Assembly: GCA_050613775.1 (NCBI GenBank)
Contig: JBODTK010000121.1
Coordinates: 310,001 to 374,000, forward strand
Direction: 5' to 3'
Length of the DNA stretch: 64,000 nucleotides
From: Neocallimastix sp. 'constans'
Lineage: Eukaryota
This document shows, in pieces, positions 26,568 to 59,601 of this stretch; within the stretch, counting starts at the first letter, position 1; each line of letters opens with the position of its first letter. A program made the translations under genes and the position numbers. The notes under the pieces were generated by a model that made no database searches, had not been told where the DNA came from, and saw only the letters and a program-made list of their open reading frames with translations.

Positions 26568-26585
26568 TGGTGGAGATATCGGGGA
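26568..26585 (+). promoter_or_regulatory. Primer binding site of E1, complementary to tRNA-Ala 3' end (same sequence in E2 at 35167-35184)
   Basis: TGGTGGAGATATCGGGGA; reverse complement ...CCCCGATATCTCCACCA resembles eukaryotic tRNA-Ala 3' ends. Confidence 0.8.
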
Positions 26586-27175
26586 AGAAGAAGAAGAAGA
26601 AGAAGAAGAAGTAGAAGAAGAAGAAGAAGAAGTAGAAGAAGAAGAAGAAGAAGTAGAAGAAGAAGTAGAAGAAGAAGAAGAAGAAGAAGTAGAAGAAGAA
26701 GAAGAAGAAGAAGAAGTAGAAGAAGAAGAAGAAGTAGAAGAAGAAGAAGAAGAAGAAGTAGAAGAAGAAGAAGAAGAAGTAGAAGAAGAAGAAGAAGAAG
26801 AAGTAGAAGAAGAAGTAGAAGAAGAAGGAGAAGAAGAAGAAGTAGAAGATGAAGAAGAAGAAGAAGTAGAAGAAGAAGAAGAAGAAGTAGAAGAAGAAGA
26901 AGAAGAAGAAGTAGAAGAAGAAGTAGAAGAAGAAGAAGAAGAAGAAGAAGTAGAAGAAGAAGAAGAAGAAGAAGAAGAAGAAGAAGAAGAAAACCAAGAA
27001 GAAAACCAAGAAGAAGACCAAGAAGAAGACCAAAAAGAAAACCAAGAAGAAGACCAAGAAGAAGACCAAGAAGAAAACCAAGAAGAAGACCAAGAAGAAG
27101 ACCAAGAAGAAGACCAAGAAGAAGACCAAGAAGAAGACCAAGAAGAAGAGACCAAGAAGGAGAAGACCAAGAAGG
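26584..27175 (+). repeat. Purine-rich (GAA)n microsatellite with GTA interruptions, grading into a 12-nt GAAGAAGACCAA repeat
   Basis: Direct reading; lies immediately after the PBS in the E1 leader. Confidence 0.95.
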
Positions 27176-27266
27176 AAATTGGAACTACTAGGACTTATTT
27201 TTTTTTTGGAATTATGAGAATAATTTTTTTAAATTAAATTTAATAGAATTAAATTAAATTAAATTA

Positions 27267-27313
<47 letters not shown>

Positions 27314-27878
27314 CACACTTTTACAATCATCATCATCAAATTTTTTTTTATTGTTATCGGTTTTGTGTTGTTGTTGTGGTTGGTGTTGTTGTTGTGATTG
27401 TTGTTGTTGTGGTAGTAATAAAAATTAACATCAGTTTTATTTGGTCTTCGCGTGCTCCAAATAAAACTATATACTGAGTTTACTGCGTACTAAGCAGTTA
27501 TAGATAATTCTATAATTGCGAGTGGTTTAATCAGGTGTTTGGAGAGGGGCCGGTTACGAACTAATCGAACCCCGATTAGATATAGCGGTAAATACTGTTG
27601 GGAAGCAGAAATTACCCTATAGATCACCCATTATACGTTCAACACGGTTTGGGTGCTCCTCCACTTGACTCAGGCAAATTCACTTAGTATACCGAAATAC
27701 TAAGGTCCCTCTGCGTGGTCGGCAGTTGTAATAGATAGCGGTTTTTCAAGTTGTATTAGGTTTGTTAATTTACCTTGTTTTTAATTAAGTTTATTTGTTT
27801 TTTTTAAGTTGTAATTATATAAACTTAATAATAATTGTAATTGTAATTGTAAATATTGTAATAATAACCGATAACAAA

Positions 27879-27909
<31 letters not shown>

Positions 27910-28280
27910 AATATTAATTTTTGTGTTTTTAAATATTTTTAATTGCTATATTAATAAACTTTTTTTTTGTAAATAATTGTACATATTTTTTTTATTTAAG
28001 TAAAGATAAACGAAAGGGGTTATTAGCTTGAAAGAATAGTGAACACTCCAACTAGTTTATTAATTTATATTTATTCTAGTGTCCAGGAGGGGGAGTACGG
28101 GTGTATATAGCAAAATTAAATATACACTAGCCGGAAACGTCTCACTAGAGATATAAATTACTTAAATATATAATTTTAATTGTAAATAAATAAATAAATA
28201 AAAATATAGCAATTAAATAATTAATAAAACAATTTTTTTTTTATTTTTTTTTTATAAAGTGTGTTTTTTTTTTTTTTAAA

Positions 28281-33274: not shown

Positions 33275-34805
33275 CTTGAGTTTTAGAGGGGGCATCATGG
33301 TAAAGAATGAATTAATAACCTTTATTTTATTATTAATAATTCTTTACTAAATTGTACTTTCCTATATTCTTGATAACCTAAACTTAATAATAAAATTTAA
33401 TTTATTTTGATATAAATTAATTTTAACTTGTAAATAATGTAAATAAATTTTAATTATTTTATTGTTATATTATTAAATATATGTATATTAAAATACAATT
33501 GTAAATATTAAAATTATACTTTTAAGATACTAAACTATTAAAACTATTAATTAAATATTATTATAAAAATTATTATAAAATTATTAAAATTATTAATTAA
33601 ATATTATTCTAAAAATTATTATAAATTATTAATATTATAAAATTATTAAAATTATTAAATATTATTATAAAAATTTATTTATTATAACTATTAAATATTA
33701 TTATAAAATTATTAAGATTATTAATTAAATTTATTATTAAAAATTATTATTAAAAATTTTTACTTATTATAAAAATTATTATTTAAATATTATCAAATTT
33801 ATTAATTAAATATTATAAAAATTTTATTTTATTTTGAAAATAATTACAAGTATTATTTAAAATAATTAAAGATTATTAAATTTATTATATTAATCTTTAA
33901 AAACAATTTATTTAACTTAAAAATATCAAAGAAAATAGTAAAAACTATTTTCTATATATTTATTTTATAATTATTTTTAATTAAATTATATTTGAATATT
34001 ATATTATTATATTTATAAAAATTAAAACAAAAATGAATTATTGATATAAAATTAATTCAATAATTCTATAAAATTACTTAAATTATAAACAATTAATTAT
34101 ACTTTAAATTTATAAAAAAATATAAATATTGTAACAATTTCTTAAAAATTAAATATGTGTACTTTAAATAATAAAATTTTATATTAATAAAAAAAAATAA
34201 ATAACTTTTAATAAAGAATTATTTTTTTTTTTTTTTTTAAAATCAAAGCAGGGTAATACCCGTCCCCCCCTGCTTGATTTTAAATATCTAAGTGTCAACC
34301 CCGAGTCTACCATTTTTGATAAGAATGTACTAAATAATGCATTCTTAATTAAATCTACGATTTATTTCTAATACATTATGTGTACATTATTATTTTTGTA
34401 CTTTAATAAATTTTTAAATCCAAAGATCAAAAATTAAATCAAAAATTATATTAAACTTTATATTTTTATATTAAATCTTATATTAATAGTAATATTTTTA
34501 TATATTTAAAACTTATATTAGCAATATTAATAATAAATCTTATTTTTTTTTATATTAATAATGAAAATTTATATTAATAATATTTTTATATATTGATAAT
34601 TAAAAATTTATATATTATATTTTAACTTTTTATTATAAAATTTTATATCGAAATGTTTTATTTTATATTGAAAAATATTTTATTTTATTAAAAACCTTTA
34701 TATTAGAATAGTATTTTTATTTTTATTTGAATATTTTAACAGATTGTAATAAAAATTATAGCCAATTAAATAAATTCTTATTAGTAATATTTTAAATATT
34801 TTTAA

Positions 34806-34846
<41 letters not shown>

Positions 34847-36196
34847 TTTTATTAATATTATAAATGTATTTTATTTATATTGTTATAATTAAATTTTATA
34901 TAATTAATTATAAAAATCAATTTAAATTTAATAGTTTTTATAAAAAAAAAAAATAAATAAAATGTAATTTAGTGGCAAGAACAACTTTTATGCCTTGAAA
35001 AAAGTATAAATAGTTGTAAATTTTGCTACTAATTTTTAAATATCATCAAATAAAATCAAATAAATTTAATAAAATAAATAAATAAAATAAATAAATAAAT
35101 AAATAAATAAAATTTGTGTTTCTTTACTTTATTTTTATTTAATTCTCTAAAACCTTAACATTTATATGGTGGAGATATCGGGGAATTAAATAGAAATAAT
35201 AGTAAATAACATAGATTTTTTTTAATTTTTTTTTTATTTTATATTGATAAACAAGTAAGTCGTTAATCCTTTGATTAACCTATGGCGCTTGTTTGATATA
35301 TATATATAAAAAAAAAAAAAAAAAAAAAAATTTTTTTTAAATAAGTAAAATTAAGATTCTAAAAAAAAAAAAAAAAGATTGTAAATTATAACAAGGAGCG
35401 GATAGAGCTCATACACAGTGTATTTCCAGAAAACAACAAAATATCTATTATTCATAGTAGGTTATTGGATAATAGTTATTTTGGGAATTAATTGGAAAGT
35501 AGACGAAGGTATTTGGTTACCGACCCGGTAATAATAGTTCAGCCTTCAACGTTTCAACACACGAAGGTGCGGGTACTTTCCAAGCACTGGCGAATAAGGA
35601 GCTTACGTCACCGAAGGCGTAAGATTGTTTTTTTTTATATTTTTTTTATTTTTCTTTGTGCTAGTTATAAGGCACTTTATTATATAAAGTATCAGACTTT
35701 GGCTAACTTCGACATTTAAATTTTTTTTTTATTTTTTTTTATTACTGGTACTTTATTTGTTATATAATTCCTGTAATAGAATCTTAATTTACTTTGAAAA
35801 TATTGTGTTTTTAGTTAATTTTTATTAGTTAATAAAAATATTATTGAATACTTTTAAATTTTTTTTTATTCCGTACATAGATTATCGGATTAAGTTTATC
35901 CTACATAGTAATTGGGCTAGTAGGCTCTGAACTGCTATATTTTATATTGAATATAGTAATCGTGGCACACACGTGGCATGACACCATTAGGTAAGCTGCA
36001 CGTCAGACAGTGTGTACTATCAGATTGTACGACAATAAAGATTATTTTTTGTGTTTAATAATTATAATTAATAATTTTATTAGCTATAACAATACAATAT
36101 TTATCGTTTAAAAAGAAAAATTTTTGAAAGGTGAAAATAATAAATAAAACTTTGCTTCTAAATTTATTACTACAAATATACTAAATTACAAAATTC

Positions 36197-36466
36197 AAGT
36201 GGTCGATAAAGATTTCGAGCTTGAAAAATATTCTATTAAGTTGTCGATAAAGATTTCGAATTTAAAATTATTCTATTAAGTTGTCGATAAAGATTTCGAA
36301 CTTAAAATTATTCCATTGAGTTGTCGATAAAGATTTCGAACTTAAAAATTATTCTATTGAGTTGTCGATAAAGATTTCGAACTTAAAAATTATTCTTAAT
36401 AAAGTAGTCGAAAAGAACCTCGTGCTTTATAATTTCTACTAAGTTGTCGATAAGGATTTCGAGCTT
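36197..36466 (+). repeat. Seven tandem ~40-bp units (AAGTTGTCGATAAAGATTTCGAACTTAAAATTATTCTATT) in the E2 leader
   Basis: Units start near 36197, 36238, 36278, 36318, 36359, 36402 and 36441; each is an imperfect inverted repeat. Confidence 0.9.
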
Positions 36467-36641
36467 ATATCTACTAAAGAAAGCAAATAAAATTATTATT
36501 TTCAAAAGTTACTAAAATATATTGTTTTAAAAATTGATTCTATATTAAATTACCTATTAAATTATATTTTTAAAGTTGTATTTCCAAATTGATTCTTATT
36601 TAATCACCTCATTAATATACAACAAGAAATATTTAAACAAA

Positions 36642-37553
36642 ATGTCCAAGGAAACAACTTTGAGCTTTAAAGAATTGAAAAAAGAATTAAGAGATATTGT
36701 GAAACTTAGCAAGGACAATTTAGATATTAAGTCCTGGGCTACTGAATTAAAACTTTGGATCAAGATACAAGGTATTACAGATCCAGAAACAATATTTAAT
36801 GCTTGTTTACTTACCAGCTCTGGTGAAGTACAACGCGTTATTGAAGATTTGGGAGAAGATAGTGATGATGAAAGTGATGATTCATCAGATGAAGAAGAAG
36901 AAGATGATGAAGAAGAAAATGTTGATGATGATATTAAATTTCCTTCTCTTGGAAAAATTATTTCAAGTCTTGAAAATTTTTACGGTATTAAAGAAGATCA
37001 AAATTTACTTCTTAAAGAACTTCGTGCAATGCGAATTAAAAGAAACGAAAAGATTAAAGACTTTAATGTAAGATATAGAACTTTGTACACTAAACTTGAT
37101 AAAAAGAGAAGAAAGCGCATTGGTGTACTAGATTATATTGATTCTATTTAAAATAATTATGAAGCCTGGAAGAAATTATCCCTTAAAGATGATATAAGTA
37201 TGGAGAAAGCTTTCAAAATTGCCGAGAAAGTAGATAGACTTTCTGTAAGGAACAATAATATTAATACCTATAATGTTAATAATTCCCAACATAATCAAAA
37301 TAATCAAAACAGTACTACTTCAAGACTTTATCCTAAAAGAAGAAACGAAACTTTCCAAACAAGTCAAACAAATAATAAACTGAAACCTCAAGATATTATA
37401 GAAGAATCAACCCAGAAAATGAGAAATTTATCTGTTAAAACTTGCTTCTTCTGTAAGGAAGAAGGTCATTACTCATACTATTGCCCTCAATTAAATAAGA
37501 TTATGGAAAAAAATAAAAAAGAAATATATTCCAAAAAGTCTTTAAACTTCTAA
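36642..37553 (+). pseudogene. gag: E2 gag with premature TAA at 37149-37151
   Basis: MSKETTLSFKELKKEL... aligns with E1 gag; ATT TAA AAT corresponds to E1 ATT GAA AAC; CFFCKEEGHYSYYC knuckle lies downstream in the same frame. Confidence 0.88.
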
Positions 37554-40500
37554 ATGGGAGCAGAAGCACTCCCAATGACAAAACAATAGCTTCATTAAAT
37601 AATTTACAAAAGAATCTAATTATCAAGAATACTCCAATTGATAATAATTCCTTCAAAGAAGAATCTGATTTTAGTGACACAACTGAAAGTGAGGATGATA
37701 TCATTATAAATGCTATAAAAAGAAAAATGAATAATAATAACAGAGAAAAAGAAGAAAATAATTCCAAGAAAGTACATAAAAGTTTAAAAGATAATCCACG
37801 TCCTTTCGCAACTCCTGCTTTAAGAAAGAAGAAAGAAAATGAGCTACATAATAAACCAAATAAAGTTTATAAAAATCAAATACTTCCTTCAATTTTAACT
37901 CAACCAAATATTAACAAAGAAAAACAAAAAGAAAAGGAATTAAGAAATATAACAAGAGTAAGAGAAAGTAAAGAAGAAAACAACAATTATTCATCAAAAG
38001 GAAAGGAAAAAGTTGAATCTGAAGATATACTTGTAATCGATAATGAAATAGAAGATCTAGAAATGAATAAAGATAATCAACAAAATAAAACTAATACTTT
38101 GGAAAAATTAATTTCAACAAAAACTAAAGAAACTAATAATGAAAATACTCAGTTAGTAAAAAGGAATATCAAAATGATGAATAATAAAGAACCTTACAAT
38201 ATTATGGATGATTTAAATAATCTTAAATCCAGTATTACGATAGGTCAACTCTTGAATGCATGTCCGAAAATTCGTTCACAATTAACTCAAGGTTTAAAGT
38301 TAGAAAAATCTAAAATAATTGGAACTGTAGACAATGTAATAGCACGAACTTTATTAGTGAATAACTATGATCATAGCTACATAAGTAAAAGTAATGAAGT
38401 AGCCGAAGAAGACTTAGCAATGGTTGATGCAAGTGTTGACGGAGTACTAGGAAAACTTTTAATTGATTCTTGTAGTAACCTAAGCATCGTTACTAAGCAG
38501 TATTTTGATAAATTACCTGGTGAATATGAAACAGTTGGAAAAAGTCGTGGAAGAATCCAACTAGCAACACAAGATGAAGAATACTCGGAAGGAATTATTG
38601 TTCGATTACCAGTAAAAATTAATAATTATGAATTTAATGCGGACTTTAGAATTATTGAGAAAGAAGACTCATTTTATGATATGTTAATAAACTTTAAAAC
38701 TCAAATCGATCATTGTTTATTTATTCATCCGACCTTAAACAATTTATGTAAACTTTTGTCAGAAAGTGAATACGAAGAAATAGCTAAAATAAATAATCAA
38801 TATTATGATGAAGAAAGTATAATTTGCACTATTAGAAAAGTTAAAGAAACGAATAATGAAAAGGAAATTATAAAGGAATTAACTCCAAAGGAATTTATTG
38901 AGAGTGATTGTAAAATGTTCCTTATGGAGCAGATTACAATTACGAAAATAAAAAAAAAAAAACAACACTATCAATAACAATACTCAAATGAAATTTATTT
39001 TTTAAAAAAAATTCTTTTATTAATCACTTTATTATAAAAATTCTTTTTATTAGTTATTAACTGCAAAATAGTTAATAACAACTACATTTTCTTTAATAGA
39101 ATAATTTTACATGTATTTATATTTTTTCTTAATTATATTATAATATACTATTTCTATTTATTTAAATATATATTCAATATAAAATAAACAAAAACTAATC
39201 TAAAATTAAATAAAGTTATAAAAAACTAAAACTAATTCAATAAGCTTTTTATTCAATTTGTTTTGACTCAAATTGAATAAGTTCTTATTTATTATTTATT
39301 TATTATTCTTTTATTATTAATACTATTAATTATATATTACTATTTAATTTTTATGATTATTAAACTAAACTAAAATTAAACTAAACTAAAATTAAACTAA
39401 ACTAAAATTAAACTAAACTAAAATTATTAATATATTTTATTACTAAATTTTAGGTTATTTAAAAATTAATTTTATATTTTTAAATTTATATATTATATGA
39501 AATATAAATTTATTATTAATTTTCATAAATCAATTAATTTCATAAATTAATATATTTTACATAATTTAATGCATTAGCATTATTTTGTAAACGTGAATTA
39601 CATTAAATAATTTAATGTACAAAATAAATTAATTAATGTACTAAAGATATTGATCATATCTTTACAGTGATGAATTTTTAAGTACCTTAAATAAAGATTA
39701 TAAAGAACAAATTATTAAAATTCTCAAAGAAATGATTGACATAGTTGCCACTTCAACAGAAGAACTAACTCCTTCTAAACTTTCACCACATAAGATCCGT
39801 TTAAAAGCAAATTCAAAGCCAGTAAAATTAAGAAGTTATAGGTTAACTAAATTAAAATCAGATATCTTAAAAGAAGAACTTACAAAACTTATTAAGAAAG
39901 GATTGATAGAACCATCCTGTTCAGAATGGTCATCTCCAGTAGTACTTATTCTAAAACACAATGGAAAGTGGCGCTTGTGCATTGACTACCGAAAAGTCAA
40001 TGATATGACAGAAAAAGATTCTTATTCAGTTCCATATATAGATGAAATTTTTGATAGTCTCGGAGGAGCTAAAATATTTACAACTCTTGATTTATTTTTT
40101 GGTTTTCACCAAATCTTAATGGATGAAGAAAGCGTTGAAGTAACCACTTTCACTACTAAGTTTGGAAATTATCAATTTAAGGTTATGCCTTTTGGACTTA
40201 CTGGAGCTCCCTCAACCTTCCAAAGAGAAATGAATAAAATTTTATTCCCTTTTATTGGTGAATTTGTTTACGTATTTATTGATGATGTTTTGATCTATTC
40301 AAAAAGTATCGAAGAACATTTAATTCATATTAAACATGTATTAGAAGTATTTAAAGAAAACAAGTTAAAAATTAATATTGAAAAGTGCCATTTTCTTCAA
40401 ACTGAAGTTGATGTATTAGGTCACAAACTTACTACTAAAGGATTAAGTCCCATGGAAAGTAAAATAACAGCTATTAAGAAGAGGGAAGCCCCTTCATCAA

Positions 40501-42305
40501 TTCATGAATTAAGATCATTTCTAGGAGCAATAGGATATTATCGTGACTTTATTCCTAAATATGCTCAAATTACCTCACTTTTATGTAAATTATTGGAAAA
40601 TAATACTAAATATGAATGGAATAAAGAACAACAAGAAAGCTTTGAACTCCTAAAAGAAAAATTAATCAATGCACCTATTCTAAAATTTCCGTCATTTGAC
40701 AAACCTTTTATCATTAGAACTGATGCTTCGTATAATGGAATTGGTGGAGTTCTTTTACAAAAAGAAGAAGAAACCGGTAAGGAGCACCCAATACACTTTA
40801 TAAGTAGAAGTTTAAAGAAAGCTGAAAAGAATTATGGTATTACCGATTTGGAAGGAACCGCTTTGTTTTACTGTATGACTAAATTTAAATCTTATATTGA
40901 AGGAAATCCATTACCTACAACTATTTACACAGATCATAAACCATTAGTTGGTTTATTTAAGAATAAAGAACCTTTGAATGCAAGGCAAACAAGATGGTGT
41001 CTAACCGCTAGTATGCTTGGAATTAATATAAAATATGAATCAGGCAAAAAGAATGTGTTAGCTGATGCTCTTTCAAGAATGAAAAGTAAGGAAGAGAGAA
41101 AGATATTATTAACAAAAATTACTAATGGAAATAATGAAGAATTATTATCTAAGGTTATAAAGGAATTTATTAATGAAAAGTTTACTGTTATTGATGGTGA
41201 AGATTACTTTATCGACAATGGAAATTATAGAAAATTAATAACGGACGAAAATGAAAGGTTTAAATTAATTTTAGAAGCTCATAATATTGGCCACGAAGGA
41301 TATTACAAAACATATCAAAGACTTAAGAAAAACTTTTATTGGAATCATATGATTAAAGATATCAAAAGAATTGTTAGTAATTGTGAAAAATGCCAGTTAA
41401 ATCGTCCTCAACCATATCCAGAACCAACCGAAAACCATCCAACTAAAGTGGAGGGTCCCTTTGTGCATTTAGGATTAGATATTATAGGACCGTTACCAAA
41501 AACAAGAAATAATAATCAATATATTATAGTAACTGTTGATTACTTTACCAAATGGGTTGAAGCCGAACCCACTGAAAACATAACTTCCTCTGATATAATT
41601 AAATTTTTAATAAACGTTTTTGCAAGACATGGTGTACCTCAAGTTATTACTACTGATAATGGAGTCCAATTCACTTCTGATATGACTAAAATCTTTCTTG
41701 ATCTTTATGATGTATATGTTAAATTTGTAGCTACTTACCACCCTGAATCAAATGGCCTTACTGAAAATCGAAATAAAGAAATTGGAAAATTACTCCGTTT
41801 ATTAGGAAGGAAAAATCAAGATTGGGATGAAGTTTTACCTTCTGCTTTATGGGCACTTCGAACTACCAAAAATACAGCTACTGGACATTCTAGTTTTGAA
41901 TTAGTATATGGAAGAGAAGACCAACAGCCTTATGATATAGCCATAAGAACAATTGAAAATGCAGGTAAATCATATGATGAAATTTTAATGGAAAAATTTG
42001 TTCGTCATTATCAATGGACTAGAGAAGCATGCGAAAATGTGAAGAATGCTAACAAGTATTGGGCAACAAGACGAGAAGAACAAATAAGTATGAAAAAAGG
42101 AAAAGAATTAAAGGCTGGTGATCTTGTTCTTGTTAGAAACTTTAGCCGCACTAAGCTAGAACCATATTACAATGGACCATTTAAAATTTTAAAAATTCAA
42201 TTCAACACGGCAACCCTAATCGATCAGAAGACTGGAAAGCAACTCGATAGGAATGTTCACTTTAAAAATTTAGTAAAGTTTAACTCCGCTTACAGAGAAG
42301 CTTGA
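37541..42305 (+). pseudogene. pol: E2 pol, split by a nested solo LTR
   Basis: -1 frame open from the TTTAAAC slippery site; LLIDSCS protease. Removing 38909-39666 and one GTGAT restores EFIESD-EFLSTLNKDYKEQIIKILKEMID, colinear with E1. Confidence 0.9.
38909..39666. mobile_element. Nested 758-bp solo LTR with 5-bp target site duplication GTGAT
   Basis: TGTAAA...TTTACA termini; GTGAT at 38904-38908 and 39667-39671. Confidence 0.9.
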
Positions 42306-42812
42306 GTCTTCGTCGGGGCATCTTGATAAGAATGTACTAAATAATGCATTCTTAATTAAATCTATGATTTATTTCTAATACATTATGTGTACATTATTAT
42401 TTTTGTACTTTAATAAATTTTTAAATCCAAAGATCAAAAATTAAATCAAAAATTATATTAAACTTTATATTTTTATATTAAATCTTATATTAATAGTAAT
42501 ATTTTTATATATTTAAAACTTATATTAGCAATATTAATAATAAATCTTATTTTTTTTTATATTAATAATGAAAATTTATATTAATAATATTTTTATATAT
42601 TGATAATTAAAAATTTATATATTATATTTTAACTTTTTATTATAAAATTTTATATCGAAATGTTTTATTTTATATTGAAAAATATTTTATTTTATTAAAA
42701 ACCTTTATATTAGAATAGTATTTTTATTTTTATTTGAATATTTTAACAGATTGTAATAAAAATTATAGCCAATTAAATAAATTCTTATTAGTAATATTTT
42801 AGATATTTTTAA

Positions 42813-42853
<41 letters not shown>

Positions 42854-43170
42854 TTTTATTAATATTATAAATGTATTTTATTTATATTGTTATAATTAAA
42901 TTTTATATAATTAATTATAAAAATCAATTTAAATTTAATAGTTTTTATAAAAAAAAAAAATAAATAAAATGTAATTTAGTGGCAAGAACAACTTTTATGC
43001 CTTGAAAAAAGTATAAATAGTTGTAAATTTTGCTACTAATTTTTAAATATCATCAAATAAAATCAAATAAATTTAATAAAATAAATAAATAAAATAAATA
43101 AATAAATAAATAAATAAAATTTGTGTTTCTTTACTTTATTTTTATTTAATTCTCTAAAACCTTAACATTT

Positions 43171-52520: not shown

Positions 52521-55401
52521 AAAGGGGGCGTCATGTTACGGAACTAGCCAAAATACAATAAACTAATGATTTAAATTATACAATTCGAAATTATAATTAA
52601 ATTTAATAACTTTATATGTTAATTAATTTAAACTATTTTTATAATTTCATAATTTTATTTTTAATTTAAAATAATTATATAAATTATCAAATTAAATTGA
52701 TTAATGACTAATTATTAAATTATTATTATTTTATTAAATTGATTAATGACTAATTATTAAATAATTATTATTTTATTAAATTGATTAATGACTAATTATT
52801 AAATAATTATTATTTTATTAAATTGATTAATGACTAATTATTAAATAATTATTATTTTATTAAATTGATTAATGACTAATTATTAAATAATTATTATTTT
52901 ATATTAATTAAACTGATTTATTATTATATTTAATTATTATTTATATTAAAATGTTTTAAGAATTATATTATCGAAAATATTATCAATAATTTTATTGTTA
53001 AATTTATTAATTTTATCATTATTAATATTTTGTCATTAAAAATAATATTAATTATATTAATATTAATATTTTTATTATTAAAATAACTTTTAAAAATATT
53101 ATTAAAATCACATGTAATAATTAATTCTAATAAGAATTAAAATAATTATAAAATTCATGTAGTAAAAAAAAAATATAAAAGAAAAAGAAAATACTTAATA
53201 AAAAATTTAAGAGTTAATAAAAGATAAAAAAAAGAAAATCTAATTATTAAGAATATATTATTTTTGAAAATAAAAATTTAAATTATTCGAAATCCTGCAA
53301 CAATTTGTTGTAAGAATCTATAATTATTTTTAACAAAATAATTATATTTTCTTAGTTAGGTTATAATTAATATAACTTTTATTAAACTCATATGTCATTT
53401 ATACAATTAATTATAATTAATAATTTATTTAATTATATATTAAAATTTTATTTAGTTTAATATTAAAAATTTATTTAATTAAATAATATTTATACATTTA
53501 AAATAATATTAAATTTATTTAATTATTCACTTAATTATTAAATTTATTAGTTTTAGTTTTCTCTCACTTATTAAATCATAAACTAAAACACTATTCTGTA
53601 TTTTATCATGTATTCTGTATTCTATCATGTATTCTGTATTGTATTAATCATGTATTTTATTATTAATGTATTGTTTTATATTTTTTATGTAAAGTTCTAT
53701 AAAATAGAACTAAATAGATTAAATTTTAAATTTTATGATCGAAATAATTTTCATTGTTTTATTCTTTTATTTTCGATCATTATATTAGATTAAGTAATCG
53801 GTTAATTAAGGTTTTTCCAATTACTTCTTAAAAGTAATCGGTTTTACTTAATTAACGCGACGATCGATATGGATAGAATATCGATCAAAAAACTTATCTA
53901 GGTTTTTCTTCTAGTCTTTTCCTAGATAAGAGATTTGTTAAGATTAGAACCCCTTTTGATTTTAACCTTATTTTGAAAAAAAAGTATAAATAAGGCTCTT
54001 GAGTTCTCTTTGAGAAATCAAGAGTTATTATTATAACAATTATAATATAATAATAATAACAATAAGTTTTAACATTTAAAATTTTTAATAAAAAATAAAA
54101 CAAATTATTTTAATAAAACAAATTTTATAATTAAAACTTTTCCTTATCAATTTTAGTGTTTCGTCTATTATAATTCGTTATAATAAACTCGATAATTAGA
54201 AAGAACCATAGGTAAGTATGATTCTTTTCTAAACCTTTAATATTAGCAGTTAGAGCTAATATTAATGATTAATAATTTAATTATAATTTTTTAATTAAAT
54301 TATTACAATAATAACTCTTCTTAGTATAGTTTAATAGAATAGTTAATTAATTTAATAATATAATTAATTTCTAGAATCAAGTAGTACAAAATAATTTAGT
54401 GTAGTACAATAAAAATTTTTATGATTGAAAATAAATAAAATAATATAAATTATATAGAATAATCTAGAAATTAAAAAAATAAATTAATATATAGTAAATA
54501 AATTAAATATTAAAATATAAGTAGATAATATTAGTAAATCAGATCAAAAATCATTAATTAATAATTTAGTATAGAAATTATAAGAATAAATTAATATAAA
54601 CCATAAATTAAATATTAAAAAATAAGTAAATAGTAATAATTAATTGGATAAATAATTAAAATCATAAAAAATTAAAAGAATAGATATATAGTAATAAATA
54701 ATAATAAATAATAATAAATAATAATAAATAATAATAAATAATAATAAAATAATAATAAATAATAATAAATAATAATAAATAATAATAAATAATACTAAAT
54801 AATACTAAATAATAATAAATAATAATAAATAATAATAAATAATAATAAATAATGATAGTAAATAATAAATGATAAATGATAAATGATAAATGATAAATAA
54901 TAAAAAAAATTAAACAACAATAAATAGCAATAATAAAATAAATAATAACAATAAGAACACATAAATACACTAACATATGTTTACATGATTTTAGGGAAAT
55001 AGAACTGGAAGAAGTAGGCCAAGGAAACAATATAGAAGAACCAAGACTTAGTACAGACCTTAGAAGCAGAAGTGTGTTAGCATCTAGGTAACAGTTTCCG
55101 GATTAAGTTTATCTGTCACAGGCAGCGATCTGGGCAGCTCTGGACTGGCCTATCCGATGTGTGGTAGGTTGCAATCGTGGTGTACGCGGGAACATGACAC
55201 CAGTAATAGGCAAGCTGCTCCCGTCATTAAGTACATACTACTGTTTACTGCTAACGTGCTTCTGGAAAATCGTCTGGAAATGCTTGAGTATTTTCTTATT
55301 CAACTGTTTTCTTTCGCCAAAACTTCCTAACTATGACCTTATAATCATAATAAACATATATATATATTTCATAGTTAATATAATTTATAATTTAGGTAAA
55401 A

Positions 55402-56145
55402 ATGGAATCCAATAGTAATAACGCCCAAATTCCAAGTGAGGTTGAATCCTCAAAGCTTATAACAGCTTTAACAGAATTTATTCCTACCTTCTTTTCCGCC
55501 GACGTAGTGTTATCCAAGGACTTAGCTGATAACAACAAACTTAACGTTAATGAGCTCCTGGAACAGAGTGAATTGTTTTTTAAAAAACATCCCAACTCTT
55601 TTTCCACGGACGACTTAAAAATTTCTTATGTTATCAGCATGTTACATGGACCTCCAAAGAAATGGGGACTTTCATTGAAGGCTGATGGAACTTTAAATTC
55701 GTTAAGCTATGACACCTTTAAAGATATTTTGATAAGCAATTTTGGGGATACTAAAGAACAGAAGGATGTTCTTATTGAACAACTTCTAAACTTAAAACAA
55801 CTTCATTTAGGAAGAGCCGCATTATATACTATTGAATTTCGAAGGTTAGCTGGACGTATTGGATGGCCGGACGATGTATTCATTGACCTAATCAAAAGAG
55901 GTCTTCTTGAGGATGTTAAAACAGAGTTCAATAAATTAGACAAACCTAAAAGTTTATTTGAGGCAACAAATTCTATTATCAATATTGATAGAAAATGTTT
56001 ACTTAAGCAAAAAGTAAAGACCAATGACTACAAGCCAAAGAGTAGTAAATCTTTCAAACGAAAAAGAAACGAAACTAACATGACCGAAAACAAATTTAAA
56101 CGCAATAAGCGCCATAAGGGACGAGACAATGGAAGTATTTTATAA
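55402..56145 (+). CDS. gag: E5 Gag (retrotransposon capsid-type, basic C-terminus, no CCHC knuckle)
   Basis: 247 aa; FSTDDLKISYVISMLHGPPKKW...YTIEFRRLAGRIGW. Confidence 0.85.
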   Translation: MESNSNNAQIPSEVESSKLITALTEFIPTFFSADVVLSKDLADNNKLNVNELLEQSELFFKKHPNSFSTDDLKISYVISMLHGPPKKWGLSLKADGTLNSLSYDTFKDILISNFGDTKEQKDVLIEQLLNLKQLHLGRAALYTIEFRRLAGRIGWPDDVFIDLIKRGLLEDVKTEFNKLDKPKSLFEATNSIINIDRKCLLKQKVKTNDYKPKSSKSFKRKRNETNMTENKFKRNKRHKGRDNGSIL

Positions 56146-56175
56146 GCAAATTACACCCCAAGTCATAATAATAAA

Positions 56176-59100
56176 ATGACTACAACTTTCTTGTTAACCG
56201 TTAATAACAAAAAGATTAAAACCAGAATCCTTATTGACTCGGGCTCTGCTAGAAGTTATCTCTGCAAAAGCTTCGTAACAGCAAACAAAATTCCTTATTC
56301 AAACCTCTCAAATACGATCAATGTAAAACTTCCTAATGAAAAGAATATGGCTATAAAACAAGTTACAAAACGTCTTAAGCTTACTTTCATGGACCATACG
56401 GAAACATTTGAATTCTTTATAGCCAATTTACAACTTCAAGACGTATCTGCAATCCTTGGAAGAGATTGGTTAAGCCTTCATTCACCCTACATTGATTACA
56501 AAAATAATAAAATTTACTTCTTGGAAAGCTACTGTAAAAACCATTGCCCTTCTGCTAAGGGTAATAGGTTTGTTTTCCATTCATCAGATATTACTGCTTC
56601 TCTCTTACCCAATAATGAACAGAAGGAAGAAATTCCTCTTGACTCAATAATTCCAGATTCCATACCTGAAGACGAACTTAGCGATATGAACATTTGCGCT
56701 GCTTTAGTTCACAATAGTGAAATTAAGAATACCAAAAGAAATAAAAAAACAATTAAAAAATATTATTATGACCTTTGTATTGTATTTGAAAAGAAAGAAG
56801 CTGATAAACTCCCTCCACACCGTGTTTATGATATATCCATTGATTTAGTTCCCTGTGCTCAACTTTATTTTGGACCAATTTATTCGTTGACTGTTGAAGA
56901 AAAGAAGGCACTTCTTGAATACATTAAGGAAAACCTTGCTAAAGGATTCATTAGAAAATCAAAATCTCCTGCTGGTGCCCCGGTGCTATTTGTTAGAAAA
57001 CGTGACGGTTCTCTTAGACTTTGTGTTGACTATAGAAAGCTCAATTCTATCACCATTAGAAACAGTTATCCAATTCCTAGGATATCTGATTTGATAGAAT
57101 CATTTAAAGGTGCTATTATTTTCTCTCGGCTTGACTTAAGATCTGCCTATAACTTAGTTCGTGTCAAGAAAGGCCATGAATACCTTACTGCTTTTCGTAC
57201 TCCTTTTGGTCATTTTGAATACCGTGTAATGCCTTTTGGTTTACGTAATGCACCTTCGGTTTTTCAACGCTTTATCCAAGACATTTTTTCTGATGATATT
57301 GGCTTGTTTCTCTTTGTCTACTTAGATGACATTATAATATATTCGAAAAACCTTACTGAACATATTAAACATGTTCATCATGTCCTTTCCTTGTTAGTCA
57401 AAAATGGTCTCTATGTAAAACTTGAAAAATGTGAATTTCACGTTCCTGAAACTACTTTTTTAGGGTTTGTTGTATCAATAAATGGCCTTTCTATGGATAA
57501 AAACAAAGTAAAATCAATTCTTGAATGGCCTACTCCAAAAAACATGAATGAACTTCAAAGTTTCCTCGGACTCTGTAACTACTATAGGAAATTCATAAAG
57601 AATTTCGCCATAATTATGGAACCCTTAAGAATACTCCTCAAGAAGAATAACGAGTTCAAATGGAATGATGATGCTGAGAATGCCTTCAAAAAATTAAAAC
57701 TTGCTTTTACCACAGACGAAATCCTTATCTACCCCGATCCAGATAAGGAATTCACTGTTGAAACTGATGCCAGTGATTTTGCTGTGGGTTGCATTCTTTC
57801 TCAAGTCAGTGACAAGGATAACGAACTTCACCCTGTCGCTTTTCATTCTAGGTCTTTGTCATCTTCTGAATTAAATTATACAATATATGACAAGGAACTA
57901 CTCGCTATTATCACCGCTTTTGAAACCTGGCGTCACCACCTTGAAGGGGCTAAGTTTCCTGTTCAAATCATTACCGATCACAGGAATTTATTATATTTTA
58001 AAAAGCCTCAACATTTAAACCAACGCCAGATAAGATGGAGCCTCTTTCTTTCTAAGTTTGACTTTAGGATTTCGTTCAGACCTGGATCAAGGTGTGGTAA
58101 ACCAGATTCGTTGTCGAGACGTCCGGATTATAATTCCGTGGTTTCCCTCCACAACAAAGACAGTCCTTTATTGGATGATAATGCCTTTTGTTGTGCAAAC
58201 ACTATTATCAGTAGCTTGATTGATACCCAACCGACTGACAAATTTTGTGGATCAAGGAGTAGTGAACCAGATTCGTCGTCGAGACGTCCGGATTATAATT
58301 CCGTGGTTTCCCTCCACAACAAAGACAGTCCTTTATTGGATGATAATGCCTTATGTTGTGCAAACACTGATAATATTAGTAGTTTGATTGATGCCCAAAC
58401 GGCTGACACATATTGCAAATCTATTTTAGAAAAGATTAAAACTAAGTCAAACACAGTTAAAAGTTCTTTATTTTCTTTAAATGAAGGGGTCTTACATTTC
58501 CAAAACAGAATCATCGTCCCATCCACTTTAAGAGCAAGAATTTTGAAATCTTTTCATGATTCACCCACCAACGGACACCAAGGTATTGACAAAACTCTTG
58601 ATAAAATCAAGAGATACTACTGGTGGCCTAATATGAAGAAAGATATTCATAATTATGTACTTTCTTGTTCAACTTGTGCTAGGTGTAAAATTCGTAGACA
58701 TAAACCCTACGGAAAAATTCAACCGTTGCCTGTTCCCAATAAACCATGGGAAATTATTGGGGTTGATTTTATAGTTTCGTTACCTAGTTCACAAGATTGC
58801 ACATGTATTATGGTGGTTTCGGATCACTTAACAAAGATGATCCATTTAGTTCCTTGCTCCGACGTCCCTTCCGCTGACCTGACCGCCAAGATGCTCCTTT
58901 ACAACGTTTTTCGGTATCATGGATTCCCTAAAATCATTGTCTCTGATCATGGCTCCCAGTTCTCTTCTGAATTTTGGACCTCACTCTGCTCAGCTCTAAA
59001 TACTAAGCCAAGACTCGCTACTGCTCATCACCAACAAACAAATAGTCAAGTCGAAAGGGCTAATTCCGTAATCGAACAATATTTACGATGCTACTGTTCT

Positions 59101-59601
59101 ACTGCCCAAAATGAATGGTGCTTTTATCTACCTCTTTGTGAAATGGCTTATAACAACTCATTTCACAAATCTATAAACATGTCGCCTTTCTGTGCAAATT
59201 ATGGTTTTAATCCAGTATGCAATATTGACTCTCCTCCTGTTCTTTTAAAAGATAATGCCTCTGTACTTACTAGGGATTGGTCTGCCCATTTTGATGCCCT
59301 TAAAAAGCACCTTATCAAAGCTAAAGAAGATTTCAAAAAGTTTGGTGACTCTAGGAAAGCTTCTGGTCCTACTTTCCATGTTAACGACATGGTTTGGTTG
59401 AAAAGGTATTACTTCTCCAATGAACCTGCAAAAAAGCTTTCTAACCAGTATCTTGGACCCTTTAAGGTCATAGAAGTGAGGGAAAGAATGAACTACCGGC
59501 TTGAATTACCAGAAAATCTTCATTTACACCCGGTATTTCATATCTCGCAGTTGGAGCCTTATACTGAAAGAGACATAGGATTAAAGGAACCATCACCATA
59601 A
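56176..59601 (+). CDS. pol: E5 Pol (PR, RT, RNase H, IN) in the same frame as gag after a TAA; carries a 55-aa internal duplication
   Basis: LIDSGSA, YLDD, ETDASDFAVG, HHCC, VDFI/SDHG/E and GPF motifs. Confidence 0.93.
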   Translation: MTTTFLLTVNNKKIKTRILIDSGSARSYLCKSFVTANKIPYSNLSNTINVKLPNEKNMAIKQVTKRLKLTFMDHTETFEFFIANLQLQDVSAILGRDWLSLHSPYIDYKNNKIYFLESYCKNHCPSAKGNRFVFHSSDITASLLPNNEQKEEIPLDSIIPDSIPEDELSDMNICAALVHNSEIKNTKRNKKTIKKYYYDLCIVFEKKEADKLPPHRVYDISIDLVPCAQLYFGPIYSLTVEEKKALLEYIKENLAKGFIRKSKSPAGAPVLFVRKRDGSLRLCVDYRKLNSITIRNSYPIPRISDLIESFKGAIIFSRLDLRSAYNLVRVKKGHEYLTAFRTPFGHFEYRVMPFGLRNAPSVFQRFIQDIFSDDIGLFLFVYLDDIIIYSKNLTEHIKHVHHVLSLLVKNGLYVKLEKCEFHVPETTFLGFVVSINGLSMDKNKVKSILEWPTPKNMNELQSFLGLCNYYRKFIKNFAIIMEPLRILLKKNNEFKWNDDAENAFKKLKLAFTTDEILIYPDPDKEFTVETDASDFAVGCILSQVSDKDNELHPVAFHSRSLSSSELNYTIYDKELLAIITAFETWRHHLEGAKFPVQIITDHRNLLYFKKPQHLNQRQIRWSLFLSKFDFRISFRPGSRCGKPDSLSRRPDYNSVVSLHNKDSPLLDDNAFCCANTIISSLIDTQPTDKFCGSRSSEPDSSSRRPDYNSVVSLHNKDSPLLDDNALCCANTDNISSLIDAQTADTYCKSILEKIKTKSNTVKSSLFSLNEGVLHFQNRIIVPSTLRARILKSFHDSPTNGHQGIDKTLDKIKRYYWWPNMKKDIHNYVLSCSTCARCKIRRHKPYGKIQPLPVPNKPWEIIGVDFIVSLPSSQDCTCIMVVSDHLTKMIHLVPCSDVPSADLTAKMLLYNVFRYHGFPKIIVSDHGSQFSSEFWTSLCSALNTKPRLATAHHQQTNSQVERANSVIEQYLRCYCSTAQNEWCFYLPLCEMAYNNSFHKSINMSPFCANYGFNPVCNIDSPPVLLKDNASVLTRDWSAHFDALKKHLIKAKEDFKKFGDSRKASGPTFHVNDMVWLKRYYFSNEPAKKLSNQYLGPFKVIEVRERMNYRLELPENLHLHPVFHISQLEPYTERDIGLKEPSP

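Follow-up and report, generated by a model that had tools for sequence, protein, structure and literature searches.

The 5' leaders of two Ty3/gypsy LTR retrotransposons, E2 and E5, each contain a module of about 150 nt (module B; cores of 142-150 nt) placed between the primer site and gag. The module folds through helices P1, P2b/c, P3, P4 and P5, is held by purifying selection and is shared across lineages. On comparison with catalogued families it appears to be an uncatalogued RNA fold common to two distant retrotransposon lineages. Its function is tentatively read as that of a portable translation element, which would recruit initiation factors or ribosomes of the host and bring them to the start codon of gag.

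Host elements and anatomy of module B

The window, that is the whole 64,000-nt stretch of DNA analysed, has a G+C content of 20% and contains a run of Ty3/gypsy LTR retrotransposons with the domain order RT, RNase H, integrase (Pfam). From 25546 to 63800 several LTR elements stand head to tail in one orientation with few bases between their LTRs (34312/34316; 53307/53309), an arrangement that suggests targeted tandem insertion. The parts of the two elements that carry module B are as follows.

34316-35163, + strand: 5' LTR of E2; the 3' LTR at 42323-43170 is 99.8% identical
35167, + strand: tRNA-type primer site of E2, after the 5' LTR
36032-36641, + strand: AUG-free spacer from module B to E2 gag (0 AUG in 610 nt)
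36642-42305, + strand: gag and pol of E2, in the Ty3/gypsy order RT-RNase H-integrase; frames interrupted in the window copy
53309-54307, + strand: 5' LTR of E5; the 3' LTR, from 59611, is 99.6% identical
55402-59601, + strand: gag-pol of E5, with Ty3 capsid, Retrotrans_gag, protease, RT, RNase H, integrase and a Tf2-like SH3 domain

The original prediction described E2 and E5 as very unlike in Gag, Pol, LTR and priming, and this is what was found. Pol identity is 76% between E1 and E2, 56% between E2 and E4, and 31% between E2 and E5, while the Gag proteins of E2 and E5 are unalignable (E 0.12). A Pfam zinc knuckle is present on the E1/E2/E4 side only, and is lacking from E5 Gag. Against the tRNA-type primer site of E2, positions 54020-54032 within the E5 LTR are an exact 13-nt complement of 54307-54319, directly behind the LTR, which is the self-priming layout of Tf1-like elements. 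The Gag relatives that bear names are from Orpinomyces (2 of 10 matches named) and Neocallimastix (1 of 27), and together with the feces and gut metagenomes in which parts of the E2 leader occur they make an anaerobic gut fungus the most likely host. E5 has a stop at 56143-56145, between gag and pol, where a metagenomic relative (L005) has a single frame of 1401 aa; a 165-nt tandem duplication in E5 pol (58083-58415) is also found in L005. In E1 a long GAA-rich purine tract, open in several frames, occupies 26584-27190, directly after the primer site.

Under the register originally proposed, module B consists of four helices that meet at a single junction. Its parts, with E2 coordinates unless marked, are listed below.

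35872-36031, + strand: module B, E2 copy (core 35880-36021 plus an outer closing helix)
55066-55263, + strand: module B, E5 copy (core 55093-55242, enclosed in a long outer helix with imperfect pairing)
35880-35882, + strand: 5' strand of P1, paired with 36019-36021; closes the junction; two of three pairs double-changed in E5
35885-35930, + strand: P2 arm (P2a, internal loop, P2b, P2c)
35885-35889 with 35926-35930, + strand: P2a, whose register has an alternative
35890-35899 opposite 35925, + strand: invariant 10 x 1 internal loop of P2
35900-35904 with 35920-35924 and 35906-35909 with 35916-35919, + strand: P2b and P2c, with five of nine pairs double-changed
35934-35957, + strand: P3 hairpin, 8 bp and an 8-nt loop in both lineages
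35958-35964, + strand: conserved junction strand AAYCGUG; 35960 is T or C among E2-family copies
35965-36015, + strand: P4-P6 arm
35965-35970 with 36010-36015, + strand: P4
36004-36009, + strand: 6-nt bulge in the P4-P6 arm
35971-35975 with 35999-36003, + strand: P5
35979-35982 and 35993-35996, + strand: conserved 4 x 4 loop UGAC/AAGC beyond P5, invariant between the copies
Tip of the P4-P6 arm, + strand: P6 hairpin with a variable loop
35978-35980 (E2) and 55194-55196 (E5), + strand: conserved AUG within the module, opening ORFs of 26 aa (E2) and 73 aa (E5) out of the gag frame
35990-35996 (E2) and 55209-55215 (E5), + strand: conserved G/GYAAGC word that resembles a 5' splice site, the slash marking the would-be cut

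The three hairpin loops all vary between the E2 and E5 lineages. A peptide from the module's AUG, which starts with MTP in all three copies, was rejected as a candidate product: the lengths differ (26 and 73 aa), and a variant in one public run (X4) appears to stop after three codons.

Covariation, selection and distribution

The six short words that the E2 and E5 leaders had been said to share were all found, in the order and at the places described. Global alignment of the two cores scores 29, against -31.7 +/- 5.5 in 3000 dinucleotide shuffles, none of which (0/3000) scores as high, and no indel occurs across the first 63 core columns. The stems are kept although their bases differ, as predicted: the 41 modelled pairs comprise 16 double changes, 2 single changes, 1 broken pair and 22 unchanged. 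For the 33 pairs that can be aligned the figures are 12, 1, 1 and 19, and sliding the partner by 1-3 columns leaves 0-1 double changes, a control that leans toward the structure, as the covariation controls generally do, because the structure was hand-drawn from the same two sequences. P3, misregistered by MAFFT, was aligned by structure, which gives 4 double, 1 single and 3 unchanged among its 8 pairs. Junction and internal-loop positions are identical between E2 and E5 at 37 of 42 sites, compared with 40 of 66 paired positions (Fisher p 0.002). RNAalifold, which was not given the hand-drawn structure, recovered P1, P2b, P2c, P4, P5 and P6.

The stems listed in the original prediction covary, but the list was incomplete, since two further covarying helices are formed by 35906-35909/35916-35919 and by 35880-35882/36019-36021. 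Its TCGGA/TCTGA helix (CGGA:UCUG, P2a) is the least secure, with one double change in its favour, while RNAalifold and the minimum free energy (MFE) fold favour AGUUUA:UGRACU. This rival register (AGUUUA:UGRACU with GAUU:AAUC) is energetically preferred but has no double changes; the T35960C variant places a mismatch in GAUU:AAUC, and would mildly favour the four-way model over it. In neither copy does the MFE fold contain the covarying P4/P5 arm, whose pair probabilities are about 0.01-0.02, and the folding z-scores are weak for the cores alone (-1.8 and 0.1), reaching -3.1 and -2.0 with flanks. From the P4/P5 probabilities and the weak z-scores it is likely that the fold needs tertiary contacts or a partner, or that it switches. 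A pseudoknot scan of the conserved unpaired strands gave only candidates of 3-5 bp that do not vary among copies. On the + strand, G-U pairs number 3-5 per copy and A-C pairs no more than one, which fits a sense-strand RNA.

Variation among E2-family copies from four public runs provides data independent of the hand-drawn structure. Eight of the variant positions listed fall within 35872-36031: three are A>G changes that retain their pair solely as G-U, two make up one P3 double change (35939/35952), two are unpaired, and one lies in the outer helix, where the pair is broken unless its partner changed too. A variant at 35859 is outside the module. These E2-family variants retain the core pairs. 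L003, a relative of E2 found in a metagenome, departs from E2 at 24% of the four-fold sites in pol and at 14-31% of leader spacer positions, but its module B core does so at 4 of 142 positions, where the four-fold sites would predict 34 (p 2e-12). Module B is under purifying selection in the E2 lineage. No substitution was found inside the E5 module among the public-run contigs compared.

The claim of a selected, structured RNA is thus borne out by the compensatory changes and by the E2-L003 conservation. A chance likeness, or a functionless decayed coding remnant, draws some support from the sampling of two lineages and from the weak core z-scores; this reading is largely refuted, and carries next to no weight, given the shuffle result, the 16 double changes, the conservation between E2 and L003, stops in all six frames and differences spread across all codon phases.

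An unfiltered covariance-model search across the entire window found the two copies only (170 and 190 bits; next best 10.2 bits), so that E1, as had been stated, is without module B, as are E3 and E4. A pattern scan of metagenomes gave 32 matches, three of them real, namely L003 (E2-type) and L005 and L014 (E5-type), a count that is too low because the pattern required AATCGTG and an AACCGTG variant would escape it. The module is sampled from two lineages only, further copies all being of the two known types. Among viral contigs, four patterns gave 0, 16, 6 and 103 matches, none of the 125 containing the full module (the best, at 17.3 bits, was the pattern hairpin alone), and three protein-led scans of viral contigs found no relative. 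None of 22 pattern matches in prokaryote genomes was real; blastn of the E2 copy against phages returned 4 records covering a 24-nt AT-rich piece (E 0.5), and the E5 copy had no match among plasmids. Part of the E2 leader occurs in 20 of the 24 runs listed, six of them RNA, and the runs include feces and gut metagenomes. In one RNA run overlapping contigs span module B, which speaks for presence alone, strand, ends and level not being readable from contigs. Over 55095-55156 a contig of 267 nt in run X1 differs from E5 in 9 places, a hint of a third module B family, and a loose end at 35989 in E2-family contigs of run X4 may hint at a further one.

It had also been proposed that the RNA is modular and was exchanged between lineages. 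Here the structured and selected RNA stands, but the presence pattern is explained equally well by retention from an old ancestor and two or more losses (E1, E4), transfer counting as one gain plus one move. Three observations tip the balance slightly towards transfer: indels are almost absent, the variable columns of module B keep 47-61% identity compared with four-fold sites saturated at 27%, and a second leader RNA (module A, below) has drifted much further even between the close pair E1 and E2. Exchange is a plausible alternative to ancient retention with losses.

Leader context and known RNA families

The leaders of E1, E2 and E5 are 1.1-1.7 kb long and contain structured modules; those of E3 and E4 measure 150-200 nt and are without module B. 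The distance from module B to gag shows a fourfold spread, at 611 nt in E2, 536 nt in L003 and 150 nt in E5. No AUG occurs behind the module in the 610 nt of E2 (10.1 expected) or the 537 nt of L003 (8.8 expected); none of 84 control windows of 600 nt is AUG-free, and three LTRs tested are not depleted. The AUG-free stretch in E2 and L003 may be a sign of ribosome scanning. The depletion is nevertheless a trait of the E1/E2 lineage and not of module B, as E1 has no AUG in 27425-28280 without the module, and in E2 the depletion starts upstream of it. From the predicted RNA start of E5 to gag there are 14 AUGs, 10 before module B, 2 inside and 2 behind. Two short upstream ORFs lie between the E5 module and gag, and the module's own AUG opens the 73-aa ORF, which runs across the start of gag in a different frame. 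Branch-point-like and acceptor-like words at 54968-54994 and 55374-55395, just before module B and gag of E5, may mark possible leader introns, and a candidate intron ending at ~54994 could remove most of the upstream AUGs. A predicted E2 intron from 35255 to ~35779 found no support in run X15.

The leaders contain other features of note. Behind the E2 primer site (35250-35297) is a small hairpin whose internal loop is kept in L003 through compensating ends, with a donor-like GTAAGT word, and at 36197-36467 the E2 spacer before gag holds a tandem unit of ~41 nt that is also present in L003. Module A (35395-35625 in E2, 27425-27770 in E1) is a second, larger structured leader RNA, 94% identical between E2 and L003. 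It terminates in a hairpin whose ACCGAA loop is invariant and whose stem covaries, and has no Rfam match. In other families, loose ends of runs X4 and X15 show a further small conserved hairpin after the 3' part of module A. At the place that module B holds in E2, E1 has a GC-richer folded segment of its own (module C, 28000-28160), 120 nt before gag and likewise without an Rfam match.

The Rfam comparison called for by the original prediction (Rfam 15, 4227 models) gave no match in the window at the gathering threshold, and at E up to 10 the two leaders, L003 and each module alone returned only noise of 10-20 bits, far below threshold. No description of the module B RNA was found in the literature covered, subscription journals being mostly outside that coverage; the main text of a fungal motif survey (15 fungal motifs; PMC5640933) does not contain the word 'retrotransposon'. 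A likeness to words of U6, of the constitutive transport element (CTE) and of picornavirus IRESs was rejected, with no Rfam support.

Module B resembles the retroviral packaging signal Psi in its site between primer site and gag, and the CTE in its conserved internal loops, which in the CTE are read by a host factor. Unlike these it is common to elements with unalignable Gags and has no conserved kissing loop: its three hairpin loops differ between E2 and E5, where a dimer initiation signal would keep a self-complementary one. The ENE triple-helix element has a U-rich internal loop on both strands, while the loops of module B are 10 x 1 and 4 x 4, with no U runs on both sides.

Hammerhead ribozymes have CUGANGA and GAAA core words at a three-way junction, and neither word occurs in E2, E5 or L003. 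Hairpin ribozymes have loop A and loop B core words on adjacent arms; AGAA is absent from E2 and L003 and present twice in the E5 stretch, and the loop B word is absent. HDV-like, twister, twister-sister, pistol, hatchet and lariat-capping ribozymes are families present in Rfam, and in the comparison by profile none of them matches module B. Hairpin, twister-sister and VS ribozymes combine a multi-way junction, conserved internal loops on separate arms and variable tips. Module B resembles this junction, loop and tip layout and is close in size to the larger of them, but differs in core sequence and in loop-junction distances, and has no Rfam match.

Ribozymes of the hammerhead type ride on plant LTR-type retrozymes, as described in PMC11722881, and fungal genomes carry HDV-like variants according to PMC5640933. 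Both are, like module B, RNA modules in retroelements or fungal genomes; module B, in contrast, lies in the internal leader of autonomous gag-pol elements and not in the LTR, is without the hammerhead words and has no HDV match. IRESs, in the account of PMC7354566, move as modules between viral genera and families and occur in retroviruses too. The viral IRESs treated there (picornavirus types I, II and V; HCV-like type IV) share with module B the nature of a structured 5'-leader RNA with a covarying core and unrelated coding neighbours, and initiation may lie well downstream of the element, as is proposed for module B. The same source gives type I/II/V picornavirus-like IRESs a core of ~450 nt and an apical tetraloop domain, compared with ~150 nt in module B, where no apical tetraloop is conserved and all hairpin loops vary. 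The Yn-Xm-AUG motif of types I, II and V is not common to the module B copies, there being no AUG at that place in E2 and L003; in E5 the motif is nearly matched (9 pyrimidines, 17 nt, then AUG 55333 of a 3-aa ORF). By size and by the Yn-Xm-AUG feature, module B is not a member of the type I/II/V IRESs.

Possible functions of module B

A translation element is placed first because of the AUG-free scan stretch in E2 and L003, the ten E5 AUGs before the module and the leader-length pattern. Module B would act on the sense RNA, as its leader position suggests and as the wobble pairs, which fit the + strand alone, and the three A>G variants that pair as G-U would have it. The invariant junctions and internal loops would pack into a compact core that hinges at the 6-nt bulge. 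The partner of module B is likely to be a host factor, or there is none, because the Gags of E2 and E5 are unrelated and E5 Gag has no Pfam zinc knuckle; the mobile IRES modules of PMC7354566 provide a precedent. Ribosomes loaded at or just behind the module would then scan the AUG-poor spacer to gag (land-and-scan), and the module's AUG and the alternative helix may tune how often loading occurs, and with it translation versus packaging. Structured modules occur in the three elements with leaders above 1 kb, module B is not found in the two short-leader elements, and the E5 AUGs ahead of the module would make a poor leader for cap scanning. Several observations weigh against this reading, namely that the AUG depletion is shared by E1 and begins upstream of the module in E2, that the distance from module to gag varies, that E5 has two upstream ORFs behind the module and an ORF overlapping the gag start, that a possible E5 intron would lessen the need for internal entry, and that no Rfam IRES family matches. 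Variable tips around an invariant core would, moreover, suit ribozymes or aptamers at least equally.

A new class of self-cleaving or catalytic ribozyme, in which the junction and the two internal loops dock and partial cleavage leaves an mRNA pool beside an intact genomic pool, is a somewhat improbable reading. Such an RNA would be self-contained and portable at ~150 nt, with variable hairpin tips, and would account for the excess identity of junction and internal-loop positions and for a covarying fold that is not the MFE, as for a fold held by tertiary contacts. LTR retrozymes are known to carry ribozymes (PMC11722881), and separate RNA pools are described for BARE in PMC3735527. Neither a match to an Rfam ribozyme nor the hammerhead or hairpin core words were found, and overlapping contigs of one RNA run cover the module unbroken, which is a weak objection since RNA ends cannot be seen in contigs and the run may include DNA. 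Intact RNA between the primer site and gag is needed as the template for reverse transcription, so a cut there would break it. In the more specific form of a four-way-junction ribozyme traded among gut-fungus LTR retrotransposon lineages, which would cut or re-cap part of the transcripts in the leader to yield mRNA and genomic RNA, the proposal is improbable. A packaging or dimerisation signal with a Psi-like conformational switch, marking genomic RNA for the particle, would occupy its classic site between primer site and gag, and the invariant segments can form alternative helices in both copies (UCGUG:CAUGA; AGUUUA:UGRACU). This too is unlikely, given that the Gags are unalignable with a zinc knuckle on the E1/E2/E4 side alone, that E1 has a Gag close to that of E2 but no module B, and that the copies have no conserved hairpin loop of palindromic or complementary sequence.

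Simple retroviruses carry export elements whose internal loops are conserved and to which host factors bind, and by this likeness module B might be a nuclear RNA-fate element, either an export signal for unspliced genomic RNA or a 5' splice site (G/GYAAGC) that is shown or hidden to control splicing or polyadenylation. The donor-like word has GU in E2 and L003 and GC in E5, the GC form breaking the sole broken pair of the model, and branch-point-like and acceptor-like words flank the E5 copy. The idea is likewise unlikely, as one RNA-run contig is unspliced across the E2 donor-like site with no joint from that site within 35380-36190, a six-letter donor likeness may be chance, and E2 and L003 have no acceptor near gag in common. 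A ligand-sensing, riboswitch-like RNA or a fold that blocks exonucleases and so keeps a shortened transcript stable would agree with the invariant junction core and the alternative helices, but is very improbable, with no Rfam riboswitch or xrRNA match and no evident ligand logic for gag.

Translation of gag through long leaders, and the division of RNA between translation and packaging, are known for few LTR retrotransposons, to follow the account in PMC3735527. Module B offers a compact, covariation-backed and directly testable RNA common to lineages whose Pol proteins are 31% identical, and the further uncatalogued leader modules (A and C) suggest a mix-and-match set of leader RNAs. If cleavage holds true it would represent a new ribozyme class; if ribosome recruitment holds true, module B would count as a new IRES-like fold from fungi and could serve as a part in the engineering of anaerobic fungi.
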